The translations under genes and the position numbers were made by a program. DNA of 45,476 nucleotides from Oligoflexales bacterium (GTDB taxonomy: Bacteria; Bdellovibrionota_B; Oligoflexia; Oligoflexales; RGVZ01). How positions within the stretch are numbered: the stretch's first letter is position 1; every line of letters begins with the position of its first letter. Shown one piece after another: positions 8,516 to 38,019 of the stretch. The notes under the pieces were generated by a model that did no database searches, had not been told where the DNA came from, and saw only the letters and a program-made list of their open reading frames with translations. The stretch is from NCBI GenBank assembly GCA_044236265.1, contig JBIIGV010000008.1, positions 1-45,476 on the forward strand, given 5' to 3'.

Positions 8516-10000
8516 ATGTGTCAGGAACAAGATTTGAATTTTTTGTATAAAATTTTTTATTCATCGATTTTAGTTTTTACGTTTTGTCCTGCTGCTTTAG
8601 CGGTGACGCCAGGTCTGGATCTGACTATCGAAATGACAGATTTCCCACGGCAAGAAATTATCAAGAAAAAGAAAATTCGTTTTAAAAAAGCCTGTGCGAA
8701 ATTTGGTACCTACCTCTCGAATAATCGGGGACTTTGGGGCAGCGGACCCTTTAAAAAAGTAACGTGTAAGAGTTCTGCAAGCGGAAAAGGTGTCAAGACA
8801 CCTTGGCTACTGAAGGTGTCGGGCGATAGCTCTGTAAAGGTATTTGAGATTTTTTATCGTGAAAAAGCTGGAAAAGACTCTTTACAAGCTCGCTACTCTT
8901 TACAAACAGAGGTTGGCCCGCTTGTTTTGATGGGTAAAGAAAACAGCAAACTCATCGCATTTTATTTGACGTCTTCGTTGCCATTTAGGTCAGTATTGCC
9001 TCCAGATCTTAAACCAGGATCCGGTCAGGCAGGATTGAAGGGGCGCTCGGTTTCATTGAAGAATATGAACCCTCCATCTACTTTAGAAGTGTTTTCTATT
9101 GATCGCGTGGGTGATTTGTGGCGAGCAGACTCTAAAGGCCGTCTAACATTTAAGGAAGAAAACGGTAAGACAGCAGAATGGGTTTTGTCAGAGCTTAAAC
9201 AAAATAGCGGTGACGGCGATGTTTTATTTGTAGCGCAAATTGAAAACAACGCCGAGACCCTTCAAGCAGTTGATCGCATGATTCGAAACAGCTCAGAGAC
9301 CTTTTTCGAAAAATTTTTAAATTTTGGAAGGTCGGCTTACGTCGGAGGGCGATACGGTGTTCCGTTGAAAGGGCAGGGGGTCATGAAAAATGCACCCTTG
9401 ATAGGATTATTTGGAGAGTTTCGATCGGGATTCCTTTCTGGTCTCAGGCTTAATTACGATCTGATTCCGAAGCAACAAGTAAGTGACGTTAATGGATCAA
9501 CGTCCTTCACCTGGTCGAGACTTCAGTTGGCATATTCTTTTTCGAAGATTTTTTCTGGAAAAATCATTAATTCGTTTGATGTGACACCTCGCCTTGGTGT
9601 GGCGAATCTGAACTATGAATATGCGCCGTCTGCAACCTCCGACACCACTGCGTATTCATTTAAATTGAATAGTGCACCAACGGTGGGCTTGGAAGTTGGT
9701 GCTGAGAAGGCGACCAACCTTTTCCGAGTGCGAGCTTGGAGTTTCGGTAGCTTCTCTGTAGGTGTTCTTCCCCTGGATAAAAACTATACGACCACGAGTC
9801 TGCGAGTTGGACTCGATCTTTACCGTGAGTTTATAAGCTTCAGAATGATAAAACTGGCTGTTCTGGGTTTTACGGCATTCGAGTCCACAAAAATTGAAAA
9901 AAAATTGACAGATGAGCAAAAAGCTTCGGATGCCACATTGGTCAGTCAGTTGCAGCTCAATAGTTCCTTTTTAGGCGGAGGACTTACACTGACATGGTAA
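8516..10000 (+). CDS. Secreted hypothetical protein with probable C-terminal outer-membrane beta-barrel
   Basis: Signal-like N-terminus ending PAALA; alternating beta-strand pattern in the last ~220 aa; ends GGGLTLTW (aromatic beta-signal-like terminus). Confidence 0.6.
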   Translation: MCQEQDLNFLYKIFYSSILVFTFCPAALAVTPGLDLTIEMTDFPRQEIIKKKKIRFKKACAKFGTYLSNNRGLWGSGPFKKVTCKSSASGKGVKTPWLLKVSGDSSVKVFEIFYREKAGKDSLQARYSLQTEVGPLVLMGKENSKLIAFYLTSSLPFRSVLPPDLKPGSGQAGLKGRSVSLKNMNPPSTLEVFSIDRVGDLWRADSKGRLTFKEENGKTAEWVLSELKQNSGDGDVLFVAQIENNAETLQAVDRMIRNSSETFFEKFLNFGRSAYVGGRYGVPLKGQGVMKNAPLIGLFGEFRSGFLSGLRLNYDLIPKQQVSDVNGSTSFTWSRLQLAYSFSKIFSGKIINSFDVTPRLGVANLNYEYAPSATSDTTAYSFKLNSAPTVGLEVGAEKATNLFRVRAWSFGSFSVGVLPLDKNYTTTSLRVGLDLYREFISFRMIKLAVLGFTAFESTKIEKKLTDEQKASDATLVSQLQLNSSFLGGGLTLTW

Positions 10001-10818
10001 TCTCCATTGGTCTCTCCCGGCTGAAAATTCAACAAGTAGTCTTAACTTCGGCTGTCTTCATGCTTAGTGTCATGTCGACCTTGGCCGAAGCTGAAGTTGC
10101 CAAAGGGCCCAAACGTCCTGCAGCTGAGTGGGGGGCTGCATGGGAAGGTCTATATGCTTCTAATATTGCTGGAGAGACTAGTCCAGGCTTTCTATCTCGC
10201 GTTGGTGTCGTTAAGAAGTCGGGTGCTGGATTTCAGGTTTTACCTTTGGAGCAAAAGGATGCTGATCAGCATTCTTTCATGGCAGTCCCCGAGGAGCGCG
10301 AGCTGAATTTGGCTCGATTTGCAAATAAGGTTTTTCAGCAGAATCCAGAAAATAAGCCGACAACTAATCCCTGTGAGGTCAGTCACCAGTCGATCGCAAT
10401 TTGCTTGGGACTTGATGCGCTATTGGACGTCTCAAATCCAAAATGGAAACTTCTAAAATTTAACAAGCAAAAAAAGTCAGTAGAACTATTACTGGAAGCC
10501 CCTGGCGCATCTGATGAAGACTACTTCAAGTGGATCCATAGTCAGTTGAATTATGACGGCGTGGTTATCGATGTTGAGGGGGATTATCTGCTTGTTCTAC
10601 TTCCACCTGGTCGCGCAGGTGATGAAATTCAGGCTCTGACGCTCAAGGATTCTGCAGATAAGATCTTTTTGCCACCATCAACGGTAAAAGGCACAAGTTT
10701 ACTGCAACTTATTCAGCGATCTGGTCGATTTGCCGTATTCTTGCCGGTAATCACGTCAGCAGAAGCTGCAAAATCATTCGTTAAGGGCTCTAAGCTTATC
10801 ATTGAAAAAGGTAAGTGA
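9994..10818 (+). CDS. Secreted hypothetical protein
   Basis: Overlaps upstream stop; hydrophobic signal ending TLAEA; no known motif. Confidence 0.6.
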   Translation: MVISIGLSRLKIQQVVLTSAVFMLSVMSTLAEAEVAKGPKRPAAEWGAAWEGLYASNIAGETSPGFLSRVGVVKKSGAGFQVLPLEQKDADQHSFMAVPEERELNLARFANKVFQQNPENKPTTNPCEVSHQSIAICLGLDALLDVSNPKWKLLKFNKQKKSVELLLEAPGASDEDYFKWIHSQLNYDGVVIDVEGDYLLVLLPPGRAGDEIQALTLKDSADKIFLPPSTVKGTSLLQLIQRSGRFAVFLPVITSAEAAKSFVKGSKLIIEKGK

Positions 10819-10946
10819 GAGGTTCTTCAGATGTGTGCGGTTTGGGGAATATCCCCAGCTGGCAATCATTCAATGCTTTATTTAGTTTGTTGAGCTCCTG
10901 AGTGTTGTTGCGTTGACAGCACTCGTATTCACGCAAGGAGCGAGAC

Positions 10947-11273
10947 ATGAACAACTCAAATTTTATTAAAAAGCTAATCGTGTGCTTGGGACTTAGCAGC
11001 CCGGTCGTTCAGGCAGGATGTTTGACCGATCTTGGTCCGTACAGAGACCATTACGGCTTTGCCGTTTTCCCATTTAGCAATGGATGTGATGAGAGTGTAA
11101 CGGTTAATCTTTGTGTCAAGTCATGGATTCCTGGAAGTGAGGACCCCGTCTTTAATTCTTACTCGGGTGTCGTCTATGGTAATGATCGACTGGATATAAC
11201 AGATGGACAATGGGAGTATTTAGATTCCTATCAATGGACCGAAGAAGGTTATCAGAGTTGTCCATTCGAGTGA
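10947..11273 (+). CDS. Small secreted Cys-containing hypothetical protein
   Basis: AGGAG RBS, signal ending VQA, four Cys in the mature part. Confidence 0.7.
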   Translation: MNNSNFIKKLIVCLGLSSPVVQAGCLTDLGPYRDHYGFAVFPFSNGCDESVTVNLCVKSWIPGSEDPVFNSYSGVVYGNDRLDITDGQWEYLDSYQWTEEGYQSCPFE

Positions 11274-11283
11274 GTATCCCTGG

Positions 11284-11324
11284 AAAACCAAAAGCCCCCG
11301 CGCCGTTTCCGGCACGGGGGCTTT
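11284..11324 (-). terminator. Rho-independent terminator of the FAS/PKS-like operon (possibly bidirectional)
   Basis: Minus strand reads AAAGCCCCCGTGCCG-GAAA-CGGCGCGGGGGCTTTTGGTTTT: long stem, GNRA loop, U tract. Confidence 0.9.
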
Positions 11325-11332
11325 CAGGTTCA

Positions 11333-12499
11333 TTAGAAGTTCGCCACAGGTGGATTGCGGTACTCGAACTCCGGAAGACGTAGGTTTCGTCCCCATTTGC
11401 TTTCGATACAATACTTCAGGATTTCCCTTCCGTATGTTCTCCAGTGAGGAGCGGATTTTCCTCCGAGTTTTCTTAAATACTCGGTAGATCTAGTGTTGTC
11501 GAAGACCACATCTGTACCGGAAAGGTAAGCGCTGTAAACAGACGCCAACTCACAGGTGCGCCAGATGCTCTCGTCCATAAGCTTTCTCAGCCATGTGCCC
11601 TTGAGGAGTTTGAATAACCAAACTGGGATCATAGGGCGACGTTTGATGTTGGTCAGGCTGAACGCATCGCGCAGAAGCTCGTCGATGCGTACGCTTTTCT
11701 CTTTGCCCGCTGTGAGATAGAACGTCTCACCGATGCTTTTTGGAGTCATCATGATGCGGTACATCGAAGCTGCGACGTAGTCGACAGGAACGATATCGAG
11801 TCGTGCATTTCTCTTACATGGCACGAAAGGCAGAATGTCTTTGGACAAAAGCTGCAGCGGCCAGTAAAGGACTTTGAAGTGCGGTGTGAAACCATTGCGC
11901 GAGTCACCAACCACGATTGATGGACGGTAAACTGTTACAGGAAGCTCCCGCATATACTCACGAACGAGAAGCTCGGCTTCGAACTTACTTTGTTCGTATG
12001 CATTGGCGAAACTTTGCTGACGGTCTAGGTCGTTTTCCGAGACCAATCCAGCTTTTGTACCTGCTACGAAAGCAGTGGAAACATAATCGAATCGCTCGAG
12101 TGTCCCATTGTTTTTCGACTTTACAGCGAAATCCAATAGCTTTCTTGTGCCCTCTACGTTGATCGCGCGAGACTCTTCGATTGGTGCTCCGAAGTCTGTA
12201 CTCGCACCAATGTGCATGATGTGTGTACATTCTTTGAGAAGCAATGATTCAGTCTCATTGTCGAAACCCATATTGTCGAGCGTTAAGTCGCCTGCAGCCA
12301 AAGCGATCTTTTGGGTCGCCAGGTTACGATCGGCAGGTTTAAAGACCTTCTCGATCAAACTTTGAATGCGCTCTGCTTGAGTCTGTTTCGCTGAAGGGCG
12401 AGTTAATAGATAGATCGTCTTTACGCGCCTATCTTTAATAAGATAGGGGAGCAAAGCTGTTCCGAGAAATCCTGTACCACCTGTGACTAGAACCTTCAT
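11333..12499 (-). CDS. Extended SDR of the fatty acyl/thioester reductase (NAD_binding_4-like) type
   Basis: TGGTGFLG, GDLT, H.GASTDF, INVEGT, VSTAFV, YEQSK, YRPSIVVG, VPVDYVA; AGGAGG RBS supports ATG at 12499. Confidence 0.85.
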   Translation of the reverse strand: MKVLVTGGTGFLGTALLPYLIKDRRVKTIYLLTRPSAKQTQAERIQSLIEKVFKPADRNLATQKIALAAGDLTLDNMGFDNETESLLLKECTHIMHIGASTDFGAPIEESRAINVEGTRKLLDFAVKSKNNGTLERFDYVSTAFVAGTKAGLVSENDLDRQQSFANAYEQSKFEAELLVREYMRELPVTVYRPSIVVGDSRNGFTPHFKVLYWPLQLLSKDILPFVPCKRNARLDIVPVDYVAASMYRIMMTPKSIGETFYLTAGKEKSVRIDELLRDAFSLTNIKRRPMIPVWLFKLLKGTWLRKLMDESIWRTCELASVYSAYLSGTDVVFDNTRSTEYLRKLGGKSAPHWRTYGREILKYCIESKWGRNLRLPEFEYRNPPVANF

Positions 12500-12567
12500 T
12501 TTGCACTTCCTCCTGAACATTAGAGAGCTGCTACCACTTCTACAGTACCTACGCCCGAAGCCCTATT

Positions 12568-13767
12568 TTAGGCTTCTACGGCGACCACCAGGCACGAGTA
12601 CTCTCCATAAGGAGAAGCACGAAGAATCATTGCGACTTTGTTGCTTGGGTTAAATTCCTTAGTGGACTTGTAACCCTTCCATTCCTCTGCGACAGCAGAC
12701 GATGGAACTTCGCTTTTAGCGTACGCTTTCTGGAGGAAACCGATTTCTGCGATTCCACCAGCTTCCATCATGTTGCCCCAGCGGGTTGCTGTGGTTGCTA
12801 CGATGGGCTTTTTCTTGTCTTTCCAGACCTTTTCGATCGCTGCTTTTTCAGTAGCGGTCACATCATTAATCGCACTGCCGGTCACCATAACGACTTCTAC
12901 ATCGTCAGCTGAAATCCCAGCTTTGCTCATAGTGCTCTGAATCAGGTCGGAGTAAACCGACGACTCAGGGATCTGGCCATATGGACCGACAGCATCAGAT
13001 GCTGCTGCGCAGGCCATAATCTTACCCATGATTTTCGCGCCGCGTTTTTCAGCGGCTGCACGTTGCTCCAGAGTTGCGAAGGCTGCGCCTTCAGCGATAG
13101 GAGCCACATCGTTAGCATGGCCACGCAATTTTATAGCCGATGCAAATACACGGTCACTGTGTGCAGAGTAACCACCGGTTACTGCGCAATCAAGTCGACC
13201 CAATTTCATCGATCGAACAGCTCCGATGATGGCCATGTGGCTACTTGTCTCGAGAGTCGTATAGTTCGAGTTTGGACCGCGTGCGTCCAGAGTCTTGGCT
13301 CCGTAGCACAGAACGTTGTTCGGAAGTCCTGTAAGAAGAGTCGTTGGGCTCGCCGTTCTAAAGGTTTCGCCGAAATTCTTCTCGTTAAGAACGCCCGCAG
13401 AGTCAGTGGCAGCCGTAATTCCTTCTTCGTAGTTTGCGTGATCAAGACACGATGAAGGAGGAGCTCCTACATAGAGACCAGTGCGGTCTGGGTTAACTGT
13501 TTGAGCAGAAACCCCAGCATTCTTAAGACACTCTTCGAGAGCCACAAGGCCCAAGACATCCCGGTGTGACACAACTTTAACGACCTTACGGTCAGATAAG
13601 TGTGGGGCCGGGTTGAAACCCTTAACTTTATAGTCTTCCTGGGTCTTGCGCGCAGCTGGAGCATTGAAAGCTTCCAGGTTTGCGTCGAGACCTAGGCCGG
13701 TTGCGGTTAACATACCGAGGCCGGTGATGACGATATCGTTTGGAGTGTTATTTTGTGACTTACTCAT
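12568..13767 (-). CDS. Ketosynthase-like protein lacking catalytic residues (chain-length-factor type)
   Basis: KS fold motifs (IVITGLG, RTGLYVG, LPN, AEGAA..LE..A.KRGA), but TACASS becomes TLETSS, HGTST becomes TGSAI and GH becomes GN. Confidence 0.8.
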   Translation of the reverse strand: MSKSQNNTPNDIVITGLGMLTATGLGLDANLEAFNAPAARKTQEDYKVKGFNPAPHLSDRKVVKVVSHRDVLGLVALEECLKNAGVSAQTVNPDRTGLYVGAPPSSCLDHANYEEGITAATDSAGVLNEKNFGETFRTASPTTLLTGLPNNVLCYGAKTLDARGPNSNYTTLETSSHMAIIGAVRSMKLGRLDCAVTGGYSAHSDRVFASAIKLRGHANDVAPIAEGAAFATLEQRAAAEKRGAKIMGKIMACAAASDAVGPYGQIPESSVYSDLIQSTMSKAGISADDVEVVMVTGSAINDVTATEKAAIEKVWKDKKKPIVATTATRWGNMMEAGGIAEIGFLQKAYAKSEVPSSAVAEEWKGYKSTKEFNPSNKVAMILRASPYGEYSCLVVAVEA

Positions 13768-13769
13768 AT

Positions 13770-15035
13770 TTAAACCCTCCTAGCGACCAAGGATGTGTTC
13801 GAACCACCGAATCCAACTGAGTTGGACAGGGCATACGAAGAATTCATCGGACTTGGCGTGGTTGCGGTCAGGTTAATGTCGCAGCCTGGATCCTGGTTTT
13901 TCAGGTTCGCCGAAGGCGGATAAACTTGGTACTTCAGGGACATCATTGCGACCGCGAACTCAATCGCACCAGCCGCGGAAATCAAATGTCCAGTTGTACT
14001 CTTCGTACTAGATACCTTTGTCGCACATTTATCTTTAGGGAACACTTTGCTGATCGCCAGTGATTCGACTTTGTCGTTAAGCAACGTCGAAGTACCGTGG
14101 GCGTTGATGTAGCCAACTTGATCAGCAGCGATACCAGCGTCCTTTAGAGCCATTTCCATGGACTCGATAACGCCACGTCCTTCAGGGTGAAGGTCCGTGA
14201 TTCGGTAAGCTGATTCGGTTACGCCGTAACCACAGATCTCACCAAGGATCGTTGCGCCGCGTTTTTTGGCGTGCTCGTATTCTTCGAAAACAAGCATACA
14301 AGCGCCTTCACCTAGAACGAAACCATCACGATCAGCGTCGAATGGACGCGATGCGCTTTGTGGGTCGCTGACGCGATTTGAGAGTGCACCGAGCAAGCAG
14401 AAGCCTGCCATCTGGAATGGGTTGACCATGGAGTCTGCTCCACCAGTCATAACCACATCGTATTCACCCGAAGCAACCATTTCATATGCTTCACCGAGAG
14501 CTTGTCCAGAGGACGCACACGCAGTGTGAATGGTTGAGGTTGCGCCTTTGGCTCCAATCAAGCTGGCCACCAAAGTCGACAATGTATTCGGGAAGTACTT
14601 GCGGTGATAAGGAGTGATCTCATCAGTATCACACTTATCAGCCATGTAGACGTCCTTGTGCCAAGCAAGCTCAGGACTGCCTACGCCCACACCCAAACAA
14701 ACACCCATCTTAAGGGGGTCAGTACTGGTTGTGCCAAGAATATTGGCTTGTTTCGCAGCTTCGATCGCCGCGTTCCAGCCGAATTCTCCAGCGCGGTTCA
14801 AAAATTTCGCTTTATTGCGAAGATCTGATTTTTGCTCCAAGCCGGTTTGATCCAGTTTGAAGTCACGAACCTGGTAAGCAAAATTACAGGAGAACTTCTC
14901 GGCGTCGTAAATTTCGACTTTGCCGGCAGTTCTTTTGCCTTCGATGATGCCATTCCAGGTTTCTGTCATGGTATTGCCGACTGGGGTGACTGCCCCAAGT
15001 CCGGTTACTACCACTCGACGTTTCGTCGTATTCAT
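13770..15035 (-). CDS. Beta-ketoacyl-ACP synthase (FabF-like, Cys-His-His)
   Basis: RRVVVTGLG, TACASS, SRPFD.DRDGFVLGEGA, INAHGTST, KSTTGH, SNSVGFGG; AGGAG RBS supports ATG at 15035. Confidence 0.92.
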   Translation of the reverse strand: MNTTKRRVVVTGLGAVTPVGNTMTETWNGIIEGKRTAGKVEIYDAEKFSCNFAYQVRDFKLDQTGLEQKSDLRNKAKFLNRAGEFGWNAAIEAAKQANILGTTSTDPLKMGVCLGVGVGSPELAWHKDVYMADKCDTDEITPYHRKYFPNTLSTLVASLIGAKGATSTIHTACASSGQALGEAYEMVASGEYDVVMTGGADSMVNPFQMAGFCLLGALSNRVSDPQSASRPFDADRDGFVLGEGACMLVFEEYEHAKKRGATILGEICGYGVTESAYRITDLHPEGRGVIESMEMALKDAGIAADQVGYINAHGTSTLLNDKVESLAISKVFPKDKCATKVSSTKSTTGHLISAAGAIEFAVAMMSLKYQVYPPSANLKNQDPGCDINLTATTPSPMNSSYALSNSVGFGGSNTSLVARRV

Positions 15036-15100
15036 GTTTCGCTCCTTTTCCACCCACTACAACAGCCAACTCAAGAGACGACACAACTTCAGATCATCAC

Positions 15101-15952
15101 TCACTTGGTCCGTTGGTAGCGATAACGGCCTCTTAAAATACGCTTCTGATTCACCGTGATTTCAGCCACGGTTTCAAACGAGTCACTATTTGACTCGGTC
15201 ACTTTTACGTTTACGACGGCAGTATCGCCTGGTCTGATAAACGATTTGATTTTAAGGTCTTGTACCGAAATCGGGATAATATTTCCCTGGGTTGCAGGGT
15301 TATCCGCCATCAGCCTTCTCGTGGCTTCCGCGATCATTTCGTTGATAACCACAATTGGAGTTACCGGGAAACGGGGGAAGTGATCAGGGTAAAACGGCTC
15401 GTCTTGACGGAAAACTTTTGCCGTCGAGATCGATTTTTCCGGAACAATTTCGGTCACAGTATCGACCAAGCTTTTGAAATCAAAAGCAGGCGTCTGAGGA
15501 TTTGCACTCAACCCTGTTGATGTCAGGGTCGCAAAGCGCTGTCTCGTGACCGAAGGATCCTCGAGCTCAGCCAGTGGCATGAAATATCCGCCACAGTCTT
15601 TGATCTCTACAACAGTTTTACCACCAACTTTGGCAGTACCAGAGAAGATGAAGGAATCTTCACTGCGATCTGTGATCCAGGCTTCCAGGTCAACCGTTGC
15701 CGGTGCTGGAACACCTTGACCAAGATCGATGCTCGTAGCGAAGAGGAAAACGGGGCGTCCCGAAAAGTCGTTATCGCGGAGCGCCATCCATGAAACAAGT
15801 TGTCCAACTGCTTCAGAAATAACGCTTGTGCTGATTAGGGTTTGGCCATTGGCGTCTTGACGACGCCATGGTTCCCCTGCACTAAAGTCAACTTGTCCAC
15901 GGACTTTTTGTCCTTGAATGTCATTGACGCGACTGACGAATAAGAAACGCAT
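15101..15952 (-). CDS. Tandem hot-dog-fold 3-hydroxyacyl-ACP dehydratase (FabZ/FabA-like di-domain)
   Basis: C-terminal half has FYPDHFPRFPVTPIVVINE and FIRPGD (FabZ-like); N-terminal half (FLFVSRV...ISEAVGQL) looks like a degenerate second copy. Confidence 0.8.
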   Translation of the reverse strand: MRFLFVSRVNDIQGQKVRGQVDFSAGEPWRRQDANGQTLISTSVISEAVGQLVSWMALRDNDFSGRPVFLFATSIDLGQGVPAPATVDLEAWITDRSEDSFIFSGTAKVGGKTVVEIKDCGGYFMPLAELEDPSVTRQRFATLTSTGLSANPQTPAFDFKSLVDTVTEIVPEKSISTAKVFRQDEPFYPDHFPRFPVTPIVVINEMIAEATRRLMADNPATQGNIIPISVQDLKIKSFIRPGDTAVVNVKVTESNSDSFETVAEITVNQKRILRGRYRYQRTK

Positions 15953-15996
15953 ATCCCATTTTCCTCTAGTGCTACTGGGTCATTCATTCCGCTGGA

Positions 15997-16431
15997 TTAG
16001 AGCGTAGCCGTAGCTGGCTTGGATGCAGGAGCACCTGAAACAGGAGCCATGTCACCTAGACGTTCAAGCACCATGCGCTCGAATGTCGCTACAGAGAACA
16101 AGGTTGGGATATCTTTGACCTTAAGACCGTTCTTGATACGGCTAGGGTCAACTTCAGGCATGATCGTCTTAAGACGAGCAAGACCTTTTTCTTGAAGAGT
16201 TCCCTGAACCTCGAACTCACCATCGGCTAAGTCACCACGGGCGCGTGCCTCTATGTCACCCTTAGGCAATTTGATGCCGAAAGCTTTTTCTAGACGGAAT
16301 ACGATATCGAGGAAGTCGATACTTTCCGCCCCGAGGTCGGCCATAAGATTCGCATCGCGCGTTACTTGCTCTTTGTCGCAGTACAGCGCTTCGGCGATAA
16401 TCTCTTGGATTTTCTCGAATGTTGTTTGCAT
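15997..16431 (-). CDS. Long acyl carrier protein with internal insertion
   Basis: DLGAESIDFLDIVFRLEKAFGIKLP with the Ppant Ser at 16321-16323; 144 aa versus ~80 for AcpP. Confidence 0.9.
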   Translation of the reverse strand: MQTTFEKIQEIIAEALYCDKEQVTRDANLMADLGAESIDFLDIVFRLEKAFGIKLPKGDIEARARGDLADGEFEVQGTLQEKGLARLKTIMPEVDPSRIKNGLKVKDIPTLFSVATFERMVLERLGDMAPVSGAPASKPATATL

Positions 16432-16473
16432 AGCGTGTCCTTTCTCATAACTAGGTTAATGAACGAACCCTTG

Positions 16474-17223
16474 TTAAAGTTTTAATCCACCATCTATGTG
16501 AATAACTTCACCAGTGATATATGACGACATGTCTGACGCCATAAATACCGCCATGTTAGCGATATCTTCTGGATTTCCGAATCGCTTGAGCAACACGGAT
16601 TCCAGGATCTTATCGCCCGCAGCGTCACGAACATCTTTACTCATGTCCGTCGTAATAACGCCGGGTGCGATACAGTTGACTCGAACATTTCGCGGTGCTA
16701 ACTCTACCGCGAGTGCCTTGGTAACGGCCTCAACACCGCCCTTAGAAGCGGCATAGTTGACCTGACCACGGCCTGGGCGCGAAGCAGCAACAGAGGAAAT
16801 ATTGATGATATTTCCGGATCTTGCTCTCAGCATTTGACGTGCAACAGCACGTGTGACGTTGAAAACGCCGCCCAAGTTTGTATTAATGACGTCACTCCAG
16901 GCTTCATCTTCCATGGAGAGAATTAGGTCGTCTTTAACAATTCCCGCATTGTTTATCAGTACATGCACGGGTCCATGCTCGGACTCCATCGTAGCCAAGG
17001 CCTCGTCGACCTGCTTGGAGTTCCTAACGTCCATCTTAATACCATGAACTTTAAGGCCTTTTGAGCGCAGGGACCCAATAAAGTCCTGAGCTGCCGCCTC
17101 ATTACTCATATAAGTGGCGATTACGTTAGCTCCAGCCTGCGCTGTAGCCTCGGTCATGGCGCGCCCGATACCTCGGGTACCCCCCGTTATTAGCACTGTC
17201 TTATTTTGCAAGCTGACTTGCAT
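16474..17223 (-). CDS. fabG: 3-oxoacyl-ACP reductase (FabG-like SDR)
   Basis: TGGTRGIG, NNAGI, NISS, YAASK, VNCIAPG, IDGG; GGAGG RBS supports ATG at 17223. Confidence 0.88.
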   Translation of the reverse strand: MQVSLQNKTVLITGGTRGIGRAMTEATAQAGANVIATYMSNEAAAQDFIGSLRSKGLKVHGIKMDVRNSKQVDEALATMESEHGPVHVLINNAGIVKDDLILSMEDEAWSDVINTNLGGVFNVTRAVARQMLRARSGNIINISSVAASRPGRGQVNYAASKGGVEAVTKALAVELAPRNVRVNCIAPGVITTDMSKDVRDAAGDKILESVLLKRFGNPEDIANMAVFMASDMSSYITGEVIHIDGGLKL

Positions 17224-17345
17224 TTCCACCTCCATTCGCAACAGGCCACACGGTGTGCAACCTGACAAATACGGGTGTAAGGCATGTGGGTATCACTTTG
17301 CAAGCATAAAATTATTAGTTTTATGATTTTAGATATTTATACAAA

Positions 17346-17445
17346 GATTAGAATTTGATTAGAAAGCTTAATTTTAATGATTTTAAACTAATTCTAATGG
17401 TTAAGAAAATATACCAGTTGCCCATTAAATTTAACAAGCAACTGG
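17346..17445. promoter_or_regulatory. AT-rich control region upstream of fabG operon with direct and inverted repeats
   Basis: GATTAGAA at 17346 and 17357; ATTAGAATT (17347) / AATTCTAAT (17390); CCAGTTGC (17414) / GCAACTGG (17438). Confidence 0.4.
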
Positions 17446-17455
17446 CTTAATAAGC

Positions 17456-18265
17456 TTATTTTGTTGGCAAAACAGCGCGTCCAGGGCTTCCCATGACGTG
17501 GTAACCGCAGTCCACGTGGAGGGTTTCCCCCGTCGTACCCGATGCAAGATCACTTAATAAGAAGCCCGTCGATCGTCCAACCTCTTCTGCGCTGATGTTG
17601 CGACCCATAGGAGCAATTGATTCATACATCGTGAGCATGTCGCTCGCACCAACAGCAGATGATGCCAAAGTTTTAACCGGACCTGCACTCACAGCGTTCA
17701 CGCGAATACCTTTTGGTCCCAAATCCCACGCGAGATATTTCGTCGCAGACTCAAGAGCGGCTTTGCAAAGGCCCATCAAGTTGTAACCACCAACAACGCG
17801 CTCACCACCGTAGTACGTCATCGTGGCCATCGCTCCGCCGCGTTCCATTAAAGGAGCAGCAGCGCGTGCGCAAGCAATGAAACTGTAACAACTAATATCC
17901 ATAGCATTGAGAAAGCCGGCGCGACTTGCATCGATGGTCGCACACTTGATGTCATCCATCGGAGCATAAGCGATTGAGTGGACTAAGAAGTCAATGACTC
18001 CAAAATGAGCACGAACCTCTTCGAAAAAGCGCGTGATGTCTGCATCACTGCTAACATCACAAGGTTTTAGAAATTGAATGCCGAGTGGTTCAGCAACTCG
18101 CATCACGCGGCGCAGCATCTTCGGCGGGCCATCAGCTTTGTCTGGAAGATGACTAAGGCCAATTTCAGCACCTTCTTTGTGCAAAAATTCAGCAACCCCT
18201 GCTGCTAGAGAGTGCTCATTGGCAACTCCCATGATAATGCCCTTCTTGCCTGTAAAGAGTCCCAT
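17456..18265 (-). CDS. fabI: Enoyl-ACP reductase FabI
   Basis: GKKGIIMGVANEHSLA, LVHSIAYA, MDISCYSF, YNLMGLCKAALE, ISAG-type VSAGPVKTLA; GGAGG RBS supports ATG at 18265. Confidence 0.93.
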   Translation of the reverse strand: MGLFTGKKGIIMGVANEHSLAAGVAEFLHKEGAEIGLSHLPDKADGPPKMLRRVMRVAEPLGIQFLKPCDVSSDADITRFFEEVRAHFGVIDFLVHSIAYAPMDDIKCATIDASRAGFLNAMDISCYSFIACARAAAPLMERGGAMATMTYYGGERVVGGYNLMGLCKAALESATKYLAWDLGPKGIRVNAVSAGPVKTLASSAVGASDMLTMYESIAPMGRNISAEEVGRSTGFLLSDLASGTTGETLHVDCGYHVMGSPGRAVLPTK

Positions 18266-19675: not shown

Positions 19676-22531
19676 TTAAAACAAAGCATCAAATCCAAAC
19701 GTCCAATAAGCTTGCCATGGCTCACTAATAACCTGACCAACACCTAACCCCACATTGAAATGAACGCCTTTATTATCCAGAAACAAATCGACGCTGTAAC
19801 CGTGCGCTCCAATTAAATCACTTGAATCTGGCCACTCGCGGTTGCGCCAGGCTGTCCCATGGTTATAGAAGCCCGACACATCGAGACGGTCCATGTAGAG
19901 AATGGAGATGAACTTATCTATGTCTTTCATTAATGGATAGGTCGCGAAAAATTTTGCCCGCGCTTGATTCTCGCCGTAGATTGGCGAAAAAAGTCCGTAG
20001 TCCTCGGTAAGTGCAAAATTTGTTTGGTTGTAGCCTGCGCCGGAGCCCGGGATTAAAGTCTTTAGTGGTGTATACATTTCCTGAAGGTCGCGTCTCTTAG
20101 GGCCGCGTGTACGGCTGCCGTCCAAGCCAAGCTCAAACTTCGCAGCGCCGACATACATACCTGCAGCTGAATTCAGGCTGACGATATCATAGTGATAGAC
20201 GTTGTTAACTGCAGGTGATGCAAATCTCGTTCTGAGACTACTGCTGGCATAGCCTGAGTCACCGATGTTGCCGGTAAGACTGAGTGATCCGTAGCCCTCA
20301 TTCAGATGACCAACGCGGCGTGCGCTGCCAATATAAGGTTTCAAATGGGATGTTTTTATTCCCCAGGAGTACTCGGCGGTTAGATTTTTCCACGATTGCG
20401 AGTAAACACCGTCAAGACGCCCTCCAGACTCCTCGAGGTAGCTCGAGTAAATCTGATTGTTAGATCGACTGCGATAGCGGCCATTATAAACTTGCGATCT
20501 AAAGGCCGAAGCTGACCAGGTGGGTGCAAAGCGATTCGTATAAATAGTCACATCCTGATAAGGAAAGCGGCTAGCAGCGCCGTATAGCATTGTGAGTCTG
20601 ACAGTCTCGTTTTGCAGTTCGTCCATCAACGGGACTGATATTACACCAATCTGTGGGCCAATCGGATCATCAGCGCCGATCCAGGGGAAAGCAAAAACAG
20701 GCCGTCCTCGCCAACGCGCCGGCTTTGATTTGGCCTTAGTCAAAGGCGAAGCCGCATTGTTTTGGCCTAGTATCGGGTTTTTAGGGTCATGTGTTTTCCC
20801 ATCAGACCAGATATCAGATGCCTTGACCGCCTCCGCAAGGGTGAGTGCTTTGCCCGCACGAATCGTTTCAAGTAGCGGAGAGGTTCGTTGTGATAGATTT
20901 TTGCAGGGTAATGGCGGCAGGCGTTTTGGATCTGGGGAAAATAGACCATATCCGTCCGCGGTGAAGAGAATCACATTTGGTCGCGCATCTGCTGACCCGA
21001 TAATGCGCACAGGATAATCAGCGATTTCAACCATTTCAGCGCAGCGATCATCGGCCTCAAGTTTAACAAGGTGGCGTAGGGAGCGGTCTGCCACCAGCAA
21101 CCATCGGCTATTTCCCGCATAGGCCATGCTAATGGGACGACCGCCTATGTTGCTTGTAAGTGTGCGTTCGACGCCACTTGCAAGTTGGACTTCGATCAAC
21201 TGATGCTGGTCTCCTGATATGAGCTCCTCATCTTTAGCGAGCCAAATGGCCGATGTTACATTTTCAGTCGGCTCGTTATGATGACCGAGAATGCGCAAAT
21301 GATGGGGCATCGTAGCCGTGAGTTTGCAGGTAATCGAGTCTGACTTAAATTTGTCGATCGGCGCTTTGCAAAGTCTTGATGATTGAGTGTTCGTCTCAAG
21401 CCACCAAACATCACTGTAGCTGATCCAAATTCCGTCGACGAAGGTTGATTTGTCACGCTTGATCCAGCGGGTTTTACTGCCCTCCGTTTTGAGGCCGATG
21501 CGCAATCTGCGATCGTTAGCACTCGCGTCATAGCTATTCACCCATGCGCGTAGTTGACCGCTTTTCGCCTCTAAGACTCCTACCACATCTTCCTTTGTGG
21601 ACTTTACTTCAAGCTTTCCATTTTCAAATGCAAAGAGCCAAGGGCTGCGCTTTAAGGCAGTTGTTTTTACACCTTGAGCTAAAGTTGGGGCCTTGACCTT
21701 ACTGGTCCAAAACTTCGTGGCCTCTGCCTTGTACTGTTCGTATAACTGACGCCCCTTTTCCTCGGTCAGGTGTTCCAGAGCATGGTCCATGGGTAGAAAG
21801 CCATTGAATGGTGTCAGTGCCCAAGGCCAGTACCAGGGCATCGATTTCGCCTTAAACTGTTCAAGAGCGCTTGCAAGTTTATTGGCGTCGTTAATGCGAA
21901 GAATCCAGGAAACAAATGCGCCGCTGGTCGCATAGCCGCGGTAATTAAATGGACCGCTCGTATAAAGACTGTGAATGCGATCCCAAGATGGCCATTGACC
22001 GGATAGAGCTTGGAAGCGCTCCACGCCTGCTTGCTCATCTGAGCCGATTGAAACACTGATCGCCTCCGCCAAGCCCTCCAGGAACCAAGCTTCCATCCAG
22101 GGCAGATGCAAAATTGCTCCTGCTGGACCAAACCAATTGTCCAGATGTCGATACATCATGGAATGTGTGTACTCATGCCAAGCTAGATCGCGCCCACCTT
22201 GACCAAGTGTCTGCAGCTCGATGGAGTCGGTGATGAAGTTTGCAAATGACGCATTATCACTTGCTGCCGACATATTGACGATGAGTGGTGTTTCGCGCTT
22301 TACAGATAGCCATCGCTCCAAGTGGGGCTTTGCTGCTTCCAGTGACTCGAGAGTTAGTCGTGCTTCGTCCGGTGTGCGACTATCGTGATAAATTCTGAAG
22401 TTATCTGACTCGAGCTCCATGAATTTCAGGTCGCCCTGATTGTAACCAAACCCTATTGGCAACGCAGTGGCAGACGTTGCGCGCATGAAAAATAGTAATA
22501 GAGTAAACGTCGTAATGAGACGGATAATCAC
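19676..22531 (-). CDS. Outer-membrane protein with N-terminal zinc metallopeptidase (MA clan) domain, propeller-like middle and C-terminal beta-barrel
   Basis: Signal peptide; HEYTH...WFLEGLAE; C-terminal strands ending YWTFGFDALF. Confidence 0.7.
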   Translation of the reverse strand: MIIRLITTFTLLLFFMRATSATALPIGFGYNQGDLKFMELESDNFRIYHDSRTPDEARLTLESLEAAKPHLERWLSVKRETPLIVNMSAASDNASFANFITDSIELQTLGQGGRDLAWHEYTHSMMYRHLDNWFGPAGAILHLPWMEAWFLEGLAEAISVSIGSDEQAGVERFQALSGQWPSWDRIHSLYTSGPFNYRGYATSGAFVSWILRINDANKLASALEQFKAKSMPWYWPWALTPFNGFLPMDHALEHLTEEKGRQLYEQYKAEATKFWTSKVKAPTLAQGVKTTALKRSPWLFAFENGKLEVKSTKEDVVGVLEAKSGQLRAWVNSYDASANDRRLRIGLKTEGSKTRWIKRDKSTFVDGIWISYSDVWWLETNTQSSRLCKAPIDKFKSDSITCKLTATMPHHLRILGHHNEPTENVTSAIWLAKDEELISGDQHQLIEVQLASGVERTLTSNIGGRPISMAYAGNSRWLLVADRSLRHLVKLEADDRCAEMVEIADYPVRIIGSADARPNVILFTADGYGLFSPDPKRLPPLPCKNLSQRTSPLLETIRAGKALTLAEAVKASDIWSDGKTHDPKNPILGQNNAASPLTKAKSKPARWRGRPVFAFPWIGADDPIGPQIGVISVPLMDELQNETVRLTMLYGAASRFPYQDVTIYTNRFAPTWSASAFRSQVYNGRYRSRSNNQIYSSYLEESGGRLDGVYSQSWKNLTAEYSWGIKTSHLKPYIGSARRVGHLNEGYGSLSLTGNIGDSGYASSSLRTRFASPAVNNVYHYDIVSLNSAAGMYVGAAKFELGLDGSRTRGPKRRDLQEMYTPLKTLIPGSGAGYNQTNFALTEDYGLFSPIYGENQARAKFFATYPLMKDIDKFISILYMDRLDVSGFYNHGTAWRNREWPDSSDLIGAHGYSVDLFLDNKGVHFNVGLGVGQVISEPWQAYWTFGFDALF

Positions 22532-35637: not shown

Positions 35638-38019
35638 GTGAGACACTTGTTACTCCCATTGAGTACGCTGAAGGCAGCCGCTATATGCAGCCTGTTTGGC
35701 GCGAATTTATCCATGGCTCAGTCCGGGAGCTTGCAGGGCGATGGTATCGCACAGGCGAGAGCGAAAGTTAGTAGTGTACTCCTTAAGTACTGCGGGGATG
35801 CTTGTGAGCTGGTCAGCGTTGACGCCAGCATAGATCAGCAGGTCGTCGAGTCTGAGGAACTTGGATTCGAAAGTATTGCAGGCGAAGCTTCGACGCGCTC
35901 TGCGTTAGTTGGTATGACGATTGATGTTCAGGTCGACGAACGCGTTTCAGCAGCTGATCAGGATCGTCTTGGAAAACTTATTACGAACGCGGTTCGCTCT
36001 ATCAGTCCATCCGCTGTTGTGCGGTGGAGTAATGTTGCATTTCCTCAAATTGGTGTCTCTGCAGAGGTCGAAGATCGCCTCAAGCAGTCTGTATTGCAGC
36101 GGATCCAAGCCGCTGTTCAAGATACCATCTCAAGCTATTGTCCAACTGAATGTTTACTTTCTAGTGTAAATGTTGATGGTCGACTCATATCTCCAGATGC
36201 TGCACGAGGCGTTTCTGAGCGCGAGCTGGTAAGGGAAAGGGGAGGTCGCGGGATCCTTCGATTAGAAAATATCGATATCGACGTCAGCTTTGATGAAAAG
36301 CTATCTCAGGATGCTCGAACAAGAATCTACAATCTCATTAAAGCGAAAACCAGATTTGCGTTCCCAGTGAACATAAATGTTGCCGTGGTCGATTTTCCGG
36401 AGATCGCAAAAACCCGTGATGAACGCGATCCTTGGAATCTGGATCGATTGCGTCAGACATTGCAGATTTTCAGAGATTTAGCGGGCACGAAGGAAATTAT
36501 CACCAATAGTACCAATAGCAATACGAGCGCTACAAATAATCGCGAGCAGGTGGAGCGGACTGAGTCACGGGACTCAAAGGAAACATCCAGCCTGACCAGC
36601 AAGGAAAAGACATCTGCCTCCGAGAAAGCCATCTCTTCGACCTCTGAAAAGTCTGAGGCGATCTCTGAATCTGAACGCAACACCCAAGGCGGTGAGAATA
36701 CAGAAACCATGATGTACATAGCAGGATTCCTGGTTTTAGCGGGAATCTTGGTAGCTATGATTATGCGATTTGCATCGGCATCCAAGGATGCGCGCATCAT
36801 GCTTGAGTCACTTCCAACGGCGAATAGAGGTGCTGTGCCTGGAACAATGGCGGGATCAGCGGGAGACATGGGCTCTACCGGGACAAGTGCCGTGCAAGGG
36901 ATGCCAATTGTTGCTGGACGTGATGGGTTCTCTGGAAAATTACGGATTGAAGTTCTAAGAGAAGAACTCCTGAAGGTCTTTATGGATCAGCCGAAAGTAG
37001 CTCGTGATACGTTTTCCAGAATGATTAAGGAAGAGGGTATTGAGCAAACGGCTAAGTATGTGAATGTCTTTGGTCCTATGATTATTTTTGATCTCATGAA
37101 TGATCCCAATTTAAAGCGCGATCTCCATGACTTGGGCGAATATTATTACAAGGCATCGTTTGCTTTTACAGACGACCAAATTCTAGAGTTACTGCTAAAT
37201 CTAAAGACGAAGGTGACGGCAAGTGAGATCCGCGTGATGGCTCATCGGCACGCAGAGCAGTTTGATTTCCTCCAGAATTTGGAGCCGTCACAAATTTTTA
37301 CTTTGATTTCTGAGGAAAAGCCCCTTGTTCAAAGCGTGGTTCTCACGCAGCTTGATCATAGTAGACGCCGAGTCGTATTTGATCTTTACGAAGGCGATGC
37401 TAAGGTTAGCCTAATGCGTGAACTTTGTCGTGCTGACGCAATTCCGAAGGAGTTTTTATCTAACGTCGCAAAAGCTCTACATAAAAAAGTCCTTAATCGC
37501 ACGGACTTCGATACAGAACAGTTGCGCTCAAGCGATATCATTCTGGATCTTCTTGAAAAGTCGACCTTGCAGGCTCAAAGGGAGCTGATGGCCGATTTGG
37601 TTAAGACAAATCCCGAGGCTGCACGTGGTATCAAGCTGAAGCTCGTCACGGTTGAGATGCTACCATATATTAAGGATGGACATTTGCTAGAGATCGTCAT
37701 GGGACTTGAGCGAGAGGATCTGTTGTCATTTCTTGTCGGCTCTCCGGAGCACATACGTGAGTTGTTGCTGGCCAAGGCTCCGTCAGAGTTGTCTCAAAGC
37801 TGGATGGAAGATGTTGAGCAGCTGGCGGGTGTTGAAGAGGCGCGATATCGATTGGCGGAGATGCGCATCTTGGCTCGCGTTCGCAACCTAGCTAATAGTG
37901 GTGCGATTCGCCTGATTGATATCAATGATCGTATATTTGCTGCTGAGCATTTAGCTAATGCTTCCCGCTCGTCTGAGCCGGTGGAGATGGCCGTTGGAAA
38001 TAATTTCATTGCAGCTTAA
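35638..38019 (+). CDS. Membrane-anchored protein with C-terminal FliG M+C domains; apparent FliF-FliG fusion-like protein
   Basis: Signal peptide, duplicated periplasmic module, TM at aa ~358-376, FDFLQNLEP...EEKP (FliG-M-like), NPEAA.GIK.KLVT.E.L...L.G....IRE.LL...ED...AE.RIL..VR.L...G.I (FliG-C-like). Confidence 0.75.
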   Translation: MRHLLLPLSTLKAAAICSLFGANLSMAQSGSLQGDGIAQARAKVSSVLLKYCGDACELVSVDASIDQQVVESEELGFESIAGEASTRSALVGMTIDVQVDERVSAADQDRLGKLITNAVRSISPSAVVRWSNVAFPQIGVSAEVEDRLKQSVLQRIQAAVQDTISSYCPTECLLSSVNVDGRLISPDAARGVSERELVRERGGRGILRLENIDIDVSFDEKLSQDARTRIYNLIKAKTRFAFPVNINVAVVDFPEIAKTRDERDPWNLDRLRQTLQIFRDLAGTKEIITNSTNSNTSATNNREQVERTESRDSKETSSLTSKEKTSASEKAISSTSEKSEAISESERNTQGGENTETMMYIAGFLVLAGILVAMIMRFASASKDARIMLESLPTANRGAVPGTMAGSAGDMGSTGTSAVQGMPIVAGRDGFSGKLRIEVLREELLKVFMDQPKVARDTFSRMIKEEGIEQTAKYVNVFGPMIIFDLMNDPNLKRDLHDLGEYYYKASFAFTDDQILELLLNLKTKVTASEIRVMAHRHAEQFDFLQNLEPSQIFTLISEEKPLVQSVVLTQLDHSRRRVVFDLYEGDAKVSLMRELCRADAIPKEFLSNVAKALHKKVLNRTDFDTEQLRSSDIILDLLEKSTLQAQRELMADLVKTNPEAARGIKLKLVTVEMLPYIKDGHLLEIVMGLEREDLLSFLVGSPEHIRELLLAKAPSELSQSWMEDVEQLAGVEEARYRLAEMRILARVRNLANSGAIRLIDINDRIFAAEHLANASRSSEPVEMAVGNNFIAA

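Follow-up and report, generated by a model that had tools for sequence, protein, structure and literature searches.

A 45,476-nucleotide stretch of the genome of an Oligoflexales bacterium (assembly GCA_044236265.1, contig JBIIGV010000008.1, positions 1 to 45,476; hereafter the window) carries on its minus strand a compact cassette of six tandem genes of the type II fatty acid synthase (FAS) kind, which opens with a fabG-type ketoreductase and closes with a stand-alone thioester reductase. We lean, with no great assurance, towards the reading that the cassette is a dedicated type II FAS, whose saturated, long and probably very-long acyl chain is reduced to an aldehyde or alcohol that goes into an envelope lipid. 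All of the parts are known enzyme types; their combination is new to the literature searched, in which the cassette is undescribed (most subscription papers and supplements fell outside the scope of that search).

The six-gene cassette and its terminal reductase

Read along the minus strand, with 18265 as its beginning and 11333 as its end, the span has fabI followed by fabG, a long acyl carrier protein (ACP), a dehydratase (DH), an active ketosynthase (KS), a triad-less second KS (hereafter KS*) and the reductase, with start codons judged by ribosome-binding sites at 18265 (an ATG), 17223, 16431, 15952, 15035, 13767 and 12499, respectively. The spacings inside the six-gene block are 42, 44, 65, 2 and 68 bp in gene order, and the block is closed by a strong terminator hairpin with a U-rich tail (11285..11331, minus strand). 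Its folding energy of -41.2 kcal/mol (z -6.7) was equalled by none of 200 shuffles, and the hairpin was not in the output of a simple terminator scan. The gene set, shared orientation, tight spacing and span that an earlier note on this DNA had proposed were all borne out by the open reading frames (ORFs) and family searches, and the strong terminator by folding. In agreement with that note, family scans of the seven proteins detected no acyltransferase, FabH, phosphopantetheinyl transferase (PPTase), thioesterase or tailoring gene; the lack of a PPTase is strain-specific, since five of ten other cassettes of the same genus have acpS between KS* and the reductase. The GC and GC3 of the cassette resemble the genome average (48%). 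A promoter scan of the window found 6 where 7.2 were expected, and an Rfam scan of the window gave 0 matches.

The reductase (11333..12499, minus strand; 388 aa; PF07993, 199.6 bits) retains TGGTGFLG, Ser141, Tyr168 and Lys172 in 22 of 22 aligned rows. Its top match among PDB sequences is the R domain of MxaA (5e-31), which is also the top fold match of its predicted model (pLDDT 90.7; TMq 0.76), while against TIGR01746 it scored 146.9, under the cut-off of 213. The sequence match, the triad alignment and the modelled fold all argue for the reductive release put forward in the earlier note. An extended short-chain dehydrogenase/reductase fold with a Ser/Thr-Tyr-Lys site is common to this protein, to terminal R domains and to fatty acyl reductases (FARs), namely the MxaA R domain, a Streptomyces coelicolor polyketide synthase (PKS) thioreductase, rice DPW, the CAR R domains and the myxobacterial ElbD. 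Unlike these, the window reductase is stand-alone and linked to a type II elongation cassette. Its nearest fused relatives are proteins that combine a reductase with an AMP-binding (adenylation) domain (30-45%), which fits fatty-acyl substrates.

On contig C40 (locus L176, 1040-3880) of the source genome, as we call the Oligoflexales assembly that carries the window, lies a gene for a 946-aa ACP-adenylation-acyltransferase protein, which resembles ElbD without the reductase domain. The idea that it is the obligatory partner of the reductase in a split ElbD was rejected, as full-length orthologues occur in only 6 (plus one partial) of the 33 reductase genomes. The accessible part of the ElbD description (bioRxiv 10.1101/2025.10.10.681575) makes no mention of this lineage.

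The ACP (15997..16431, minus strand; 144 aa, with Ser37 in AESIDFLD) was assigned by PF00550, alignments and a model, and the alignments place in it an insertion of ~45-50 residues. The top fold match of the model (pLDDT 87.9) is 2kw2, the 'specialized ACP' RPA2022, at TMq 0.55, as compared to ~0.4 for ordinary ACPs, and the nearest Atlas cluster carries the automatic name AcpXL family. The DH (15101..15952, minus strand; 283 aa) is a fused double hot-dog protein, of which the FabZ families match the C-terminal half only (residues 162-273). In 12 of 12 aligned homologues, a His of the C-terminal half (His191) and a Glu of the N-terminal half (Glu47) are invariant, and the same alignment of 12 shows that the C-half Glu is gone in the sister types. 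In FabZ, one subunit supplies the active-site His and another the Glu; the fused pseudo-dimer is therefore predicted to hold a single composite catalytic site. As for the two KSs, described in the earlier note as one active and one dead, the first (13770..15035, minus strand; FabF-like) keeps Cys/His/His (C173, H313 and H350, numbered from ATG 15035), and KS* (12568..13767, minus strand) has Glu/Thr/Asn in those alignment columns. On the alignment and the trees described below, KS* is the predicted chain-length partner.

In the mechanism that we propose, the one Sfp-type PPTase of the genome would prime the ACP in trans, a task that would fall to AcpS in relatives, and its one FabD would load it. 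The active KS would pair with KS*, which would set the chain length, and each elongation cycle would be finished by the fabG-type ketoreductase (16474..17223, minus strand; NF009466, 259.9 bits versus a cut-off of 222; TIGR01830, 287 versus 297.75), the one-site double hot-dog DH and the housekeeping FabI. The reductase would then cleave the thioester with NAD(P)H, a four-electron reduction as far as the alcohol being a guess from the likeness to MxaA. The product would most likely be an envelope lipid or its precursor.

Housekeeping genes and the degree of saturation

The source genome (3.25 Mb, 88.7% complete) has a canonical fabF (TIGR03150, 621.8, over the cut-off), an 81-aa acpP, fabG-fabH and fabZ-lpxA-lpxB-lpxK on other contigs, as well as one FabD and one Sfp-sized PPTase; the AcpS of the nearest relative had no match in this 88.7% complete assembly. 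These separate genes agree with the earlier statement that the cassette is not the housekeeping fab locus. The opposite view could appeal to the window fabI (17456..18265, minus strand; enoyl-ACP reductase, with NCBIfam FabI families as top matches at 292 bits, short of the cut-off of 337), which is the sole fabI found in the assembly. This view is scarcely credible: the canonical fabF, acpP, fabG-fabH, fabZ and fabD lie elsewhere, the search of 94 order genomes gave no cassette reductase for 61 of them, and in a genome of the same genus (G003) fabI stands in the corresponding place while the 10 kb downstream contain no gene of the cassette. The retention of fabI in this cassette-less genome implies that fabI is general-purpose and the cassette accessory. 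G003 preserves the order dus-barrel gene-fabI, and in the place of the cassette it has unrelated genes (trypsin-like, carbonic anhydrase, DUF6036 and RHS).

The earlier note placed fabI immediately upstream of the cassette. It is indeed adjacent, and adjoins the cassette in 11 of 11 genus loci, but it is set off by a 232-bp spacer (68% AT) with a terminator-like hairpin of its own (17413..17446, minus strand; z -4.0). Hairpins of -14 kcal/mol or below lie downstream of fabI in 8 of the 11 genus loci (the shuffle control being that of the window locus alone). The gene is thus probably a neighbour that is transcribed separately from the cassette.

Among 41 cassette loci of the order, FabI adjoins 14, three of them loci of another family where it flanks the cassette at its other end, and a FabL-like gene lies ahead of the reductase in three more, giving 17 of 41 loci with a FabI or FabL-like gene at three different positions. 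The place of fabI is taken in the sister cassettes by FabL. This speaks for a saturated chain rather than a polyene, and we consider a saturated long chain the likelier product. If FabI were unused, the cassette would be a highly reducing type II PKS, whose polyene would be released as a polyenal or polyenol, a pigment or antioxidant. Its KS, triad-less KS, ketoreductase, DH and ACP do match the polyene core as given in the accessible parts of PMC9582728 and PMC8358021, a likeness of gene content only; moreover, fabI is set off by its hairpin, and no enoyl reductase was present in the fetched DNA of 24 of the 41 order loci. We nevertheless regard this as improbable: besides the FabL of the nearest sister cassettes and the 17 order loci with FabI or FabL-like genes, the active KS is nearest to FabF (~300 bits), and no polyene or aryl polyene KS was among the best 60 of its 170 PDB matches.

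The aryl polyene cluster of E. coli CFT073 also has a KS with a non-catalytic partner, a ketoreductase, a two-part DH and a dedicated ACP. The window differs from it in having a full-length KS* rather than the half-size ApeC, one long ACP rather than two short ones and an adjacent enoyl reductase, and in lacking a ligase, thioesterase, glycosyltransferase and MMPL exporter. When the 16 CFT073 ape proteins were compared with the source genome by tblastn, ApeC, ApeH, ApeK, ApeL, ApeM, ApeN, ApeP, ApeI, ApeB and ApeE had no match, nor did the MMPL exporter. Identity with the aryl polyene cluster was dismissed, as its marker genes are missing from the genome. The aryl polyene or polyene framing of the cassette in the earlier note is weakened by these missing markers and by the FabL with which the sister cassettes open; the trees described below contained no ishigamide-type polyene sequence.

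Sister cassettes and their end modules

A search of GTDB genomes with the long ACP gave 563 relatives, and the analysis continued with the top 80. The context of the ACP in Verrucomicrobia and some others is FabL-FabG-long ACP-double DH-KS-KS2-AcpS/LpxL. In the class of a betaproteobacterial carrier, the ACP was found in 12 of 400 genomes, and 11 newly fetched loci of that class read FabL-(FabG)-ACP-DH-KS-KS2-(AcpS)-LpxL. Four of six FabL proteins tested scored over the family cut-off, and two fell just short. AcpS-LpxL fusion proteins end the sister cassette in nine loci.

The end modules were tallied by uniform tblastn over the fetched loci. All 41 order loci have the reductase and none has LpxL. 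In the Verrucomicrobia and other sister loci, LpxL was detected in 13 of 19, FabL in 14 of 19 and the reductase in none; in the gammaproteobacterial ones, LpxL and FabL were each detected in 9 of 11 (two truncated by contig ends in the case of LpxL), and the reductase again in none. When the sister loci were pooled, LpxL was present in 22 of 30, the FabL opening in 23 of 30 and the reductase in 0 of 30. The reductase and LpxL end modules are exclusive of one another in the loci tallied.

The LpxL-ending cassette of Verrucomicrobia and low-GC Gammaproteobacteria shares with the window the gene order enoyl reductase-ketoreductase-long ACP-double DH-KS-KS2, the long ACP itself (42-56%), a fused DH with the same His and Glu, an AcpS slot and an enoyl reductase slot. 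In the window, the reductase replaces LpxL and FabI replaces FabL; the triad of KS* is fully lost, whereas many sister KS2 proteins retain C/H/H or S/H/H. We presume the LpxL-ending type to be that of Legionella lpg0359-lpg0363. In the accessible part of PMC13200437, lpg0359 is named an ACP and lpg0361/0362 KSs, and that of PMC5613085 reports a fatty acid of very long chain (VLCFA) on Legionella lipid A.

Trees of 46, 45 and 48 rows were built with IQ-TREE under LG+G4, with no mixture model and with most planctomycete rows and near-duplicates omitted. The 17 reductase-type rows of KS* form one clade (100/98), sister to eight LpxL-type second KSs (100/99), and the sister relation was again supported at 100/99 after the addition of five gammaproteobacterial rows. 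The active KSs of the reductase type also form one clade (97/94). S. meliloti FabF1XL and FabF2XL (the latter a long branch), aryl polyene KSs, NodE and housekeeping FabF all lie outside. The KS phylogeny that the earlier note had suggested as a check therefore set the cassette apart from the aryl polyene and rhizobial XL systems, with the LpxL-ending cassette, unnamed in that note, as nearest kin. Since the two cassette kinds are sisters and not nested, the trees give no direction for the swap of end modules.

The long ACP also occurs in other settings. Planctomycete cassettes read DH-(fabG)-long ACP-DH-(KS*)-KS, with the dehydratase halves split, and the tblastn tally detected LpxL or the reductase in none of 59 loci of this type. 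Streptomyces plasmid clusters (locus L130, 10891-22244; locus L133, 10814-23597) use the same long ACP, together with FabD, two KSs, a fused KS-KS, FabH, an aldo/keto reductase and an FAD monooxygenase.

The rhizobial XL locus, with which the earlier note had drawn a parallel, consists of acpXL-fabZXL-fabF2XL-fabF1XL-adhA2XL-lpxXL and serves VLCFA synthesis, according to the accessible parts of PMC11901934 and PMC5613085. In common with the window cassette, it has a dedicated enlarged ACP, a DH and two paired KSs, one of them triad-less, and it depends on housekeeping FabD/FabH, as the cassette presumably does; its triad-less KS has Glu in the Cys column, as KS* has (22% over an alignment of 338 columns). 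The parallel stands for the ACP: acpXL is the top match of the window ACP in the S. meliloti record, the window ACP is the top match of AcpXL in the source genome (57.8 bits, as compared to 38.1 for acpP), and the fold match is RPA2022. It fails for the KSs, which do not group with the XL pair in the trees. The window ACP has the longer insertion, and the cassette is without LpxXL and AdhA2XL and has instead FabG, the thioester reductase and the fused double hot-dog DH. The product that marks an XL locus is a C26-C30 (omega-1)-hydroxy acid carried by lipid A. Against the XL family cut-offs, which the S. meliloti proteins pass, the ACP scored 59 versus 83 (PRK06508), KS* 50 versus 320 and the active KS 258 versus 629. 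Until its final step the cassette would operate in the manner of the XL locus, yet it is no member of it. The S. meliloti record, CP090106.1, is labelled pSymB; it is 3.7 Mb long with cob and acpXL genes, and is probably a mislabelled chromosome.

The kinship with LpxL-ending cassettes raises the alternative that lipid A is still fed, the long ACP giving a VLCFA to an unlinked LpxL and the reductase tailoring the chain or draining excess acyl-ACP. The source genome does have a complete lpx operon as well as two genes of the LpxL family, sister cassettes terminate in LpxL, and the rhizobial loci include an oxidoreductase, adhA2XL, that is required for VLCFA (PMC11901934, accessible part). This seems unlikely to us, as neither unlinked LpxL belongs to the cassette clade (20-29% to its members, which share 43-60% among themselves; 24-27% to LpxXL), the number of LpxL matches is independent of cassette presence (2-3 in cassette-less genus members, 1-2 in carriers), the reductase is of the R-domain/FAR type and not a zinc alcohol dehydrogenase, and LpxL is kept in none of the 41 order loci.

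Distribution, expression and the probable product

Ten of 12 other genomes of the genus carry the cassette in identical gene order, and among the 94 genomes of the order the reductase is present in 33. When 130 genomes of the phylum were scored with a KS* profile, 32 exceeded 250 bits, as compared to 205-234 bits for ordinary KSs; all 32 are within the 33 reductase genomes, and none of the 36 phylum genomes outside the order exceeded 250 bits. The one reductase genome without KS* is 72% complete and has its reductase at a contig end. Cassette genes lie alongside in 19 of 20 loci fetched around reductase matches, and the cassette is duplicated in some genomes. The cluster to which a neighbouring gene belongs consists mostly of Bdellovibrionota, a loose fit with the Oligoflexales assignment.

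A larger variant in the order reads ACP-DH-KS-KS*-reductase-fabG and includes a B12 radical SAM/DUF4070 protein, an Sfp-type PPTase, a LolA-like protein and an FtsX permease, as well as outer-membrane barrel-like and lipoprotein-like unknowns; several genomes have both variants. In one such locus (L122), DUF3419 and another KS pair are present too. The source genome had no match to the B12 radical SAM or to three unknown families of this variant, and has weak homologues of its LolA-like and FtsX proteins on contig C88. Another order locus (L114) is rearranged, a kinase and a sigma-54 regulator splitting the DH from ACP-KS-KS*-reductase.

Two freshwater metatranscriptome runs of one study yielded 14 short contigs, 12 of them at ≥95% and all on cassette genes, none on the flanks, with one spanning the ACP-DH junction. 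The runs were retrieved using the cassette itself, and the figures rest on contigs only and on small shares (0.18 and 0.09). They hint that the cassette is expressed, and the carrier is likely a bacterium of fresh water.

The accessory distribution could also suit a secreted metabolite, such as an amine, hydrocarbon, signal or predation surfactant, made by unlinked enzymes from a released aldehyde. The top structural matches of the reductase are biosynthetic R domains, those of MxaA and the Streptomyces coelicolor PKS thioreductase; the genus can do without the cassette, which G003 lacks beside fabI, and some genomes have it in duplicate; and a B12 radical SAM enzyme occurs in the larger variant together with export genes. 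Set against this, no aminotransferase, regulator, resistance or export gene occurs in the window cassette or in the 10 genus copies, and the cassette has a fixed chromosomal position and a genome-like GC3, making this alternative rather implausible. The LolA-like and FtsX genes of the larger variant point, indirectly, to the envelope.

Several points weigh against the reading that we prefer, that of a saturated, probably very-long chain reduced for an envelope lipid. The term 'very long' is used only because of the LpxL neighbour in sister cassettes and the likeness of the ACP. The sister cassettes are uncharacterised in the literature covered, and the long ACP, occurring also in Streptomyces polyketide-like and planctomycete clusters, does not prove that the chain is very long; its margin over ordinary ACPs in PDB sequence matches is tiny (48.5 versus 47.9 bits). 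The active KS is only weakly sister to the LpxL type in the 46-row tree (84/81), and in the 48-row tree it groups instead with a Streptomyces long-ACP KS (88/77). The 41 order loci, 24 of which lack an enoyl reductase in the fetched DNA, were chosen by KS* (20) or by the reductase (20), and counts over them are not independent, as they were picked on these two genes and many are kin or from the same genome. The gene for FabI is set off by its hairpin, and none of the RNA contigs lies on it. Finally, no acceptor for the alcohol was found in the source genome. Wax ester synthase (PF03007) had no match there, and the control genomes gave none either; no AGPS-like ether-lipid gene was found in the source genome, and its sole PF02913 match was rejected as AGPS, as the sequence looks like a D-2-hydroxyacid dehydrogenase. 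Provided that the preferred reading is right, we would cautiously expect a chain longer than C20.

A bolder proposal, which we put forward as speculation with a small though real chance of being right, is that one long-ACP chassis with exchangeable ends is spread across phyla, and that in this order the lipid A VLCFA path has become a type II route to C22-C30 alcohols, the first in bacteria, leading to an undescribed envelope lipid; as part of the same proposal, this lipid would be methylated in the larger variant and exported by the LolA-like and FtsX proteins. Long n-alkanols are usually taken as plant-wax markers. If the proposal is true, freshwater bacteria would be a hidden source of them. 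On the dedicated-FAS reading, an undescribed lipid is to be expected in roughly one in three genomes of the order (33 of 94), and the six genes would give compact access to long fatty alcohols, testable in a laboratory host. The swap of LpxL and reductase on a common chassis would be a natural experiment in chain-length setting by a triad-less KS and an enlarged ACP.

Other genes of the window were also noted. Just downstream of the cassette, three ORFs on the plus strand (8516-11273) had no Pfam or NCBIfam match and show a lower GC3 of 0.40-0.41; two of them recur in one relative (locus L104). On the other side, a minus-strand gene (19676-22531) encodes a protein of 951 aa that contains an HEYTH (HExxH) motif and had no match in Pfam. 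Its look-alikes in the Atlas are proteins that combine a propeller with an Omp85-type barrel, and it is kept upstream of fabI across the genus, the cassette-less G003 included. Further away, a plus-strand gene (35638-38019) encodes a protein of 793 aa that ends in the middle and C-terminal domains of FliG, the usual FliG being far shorter.

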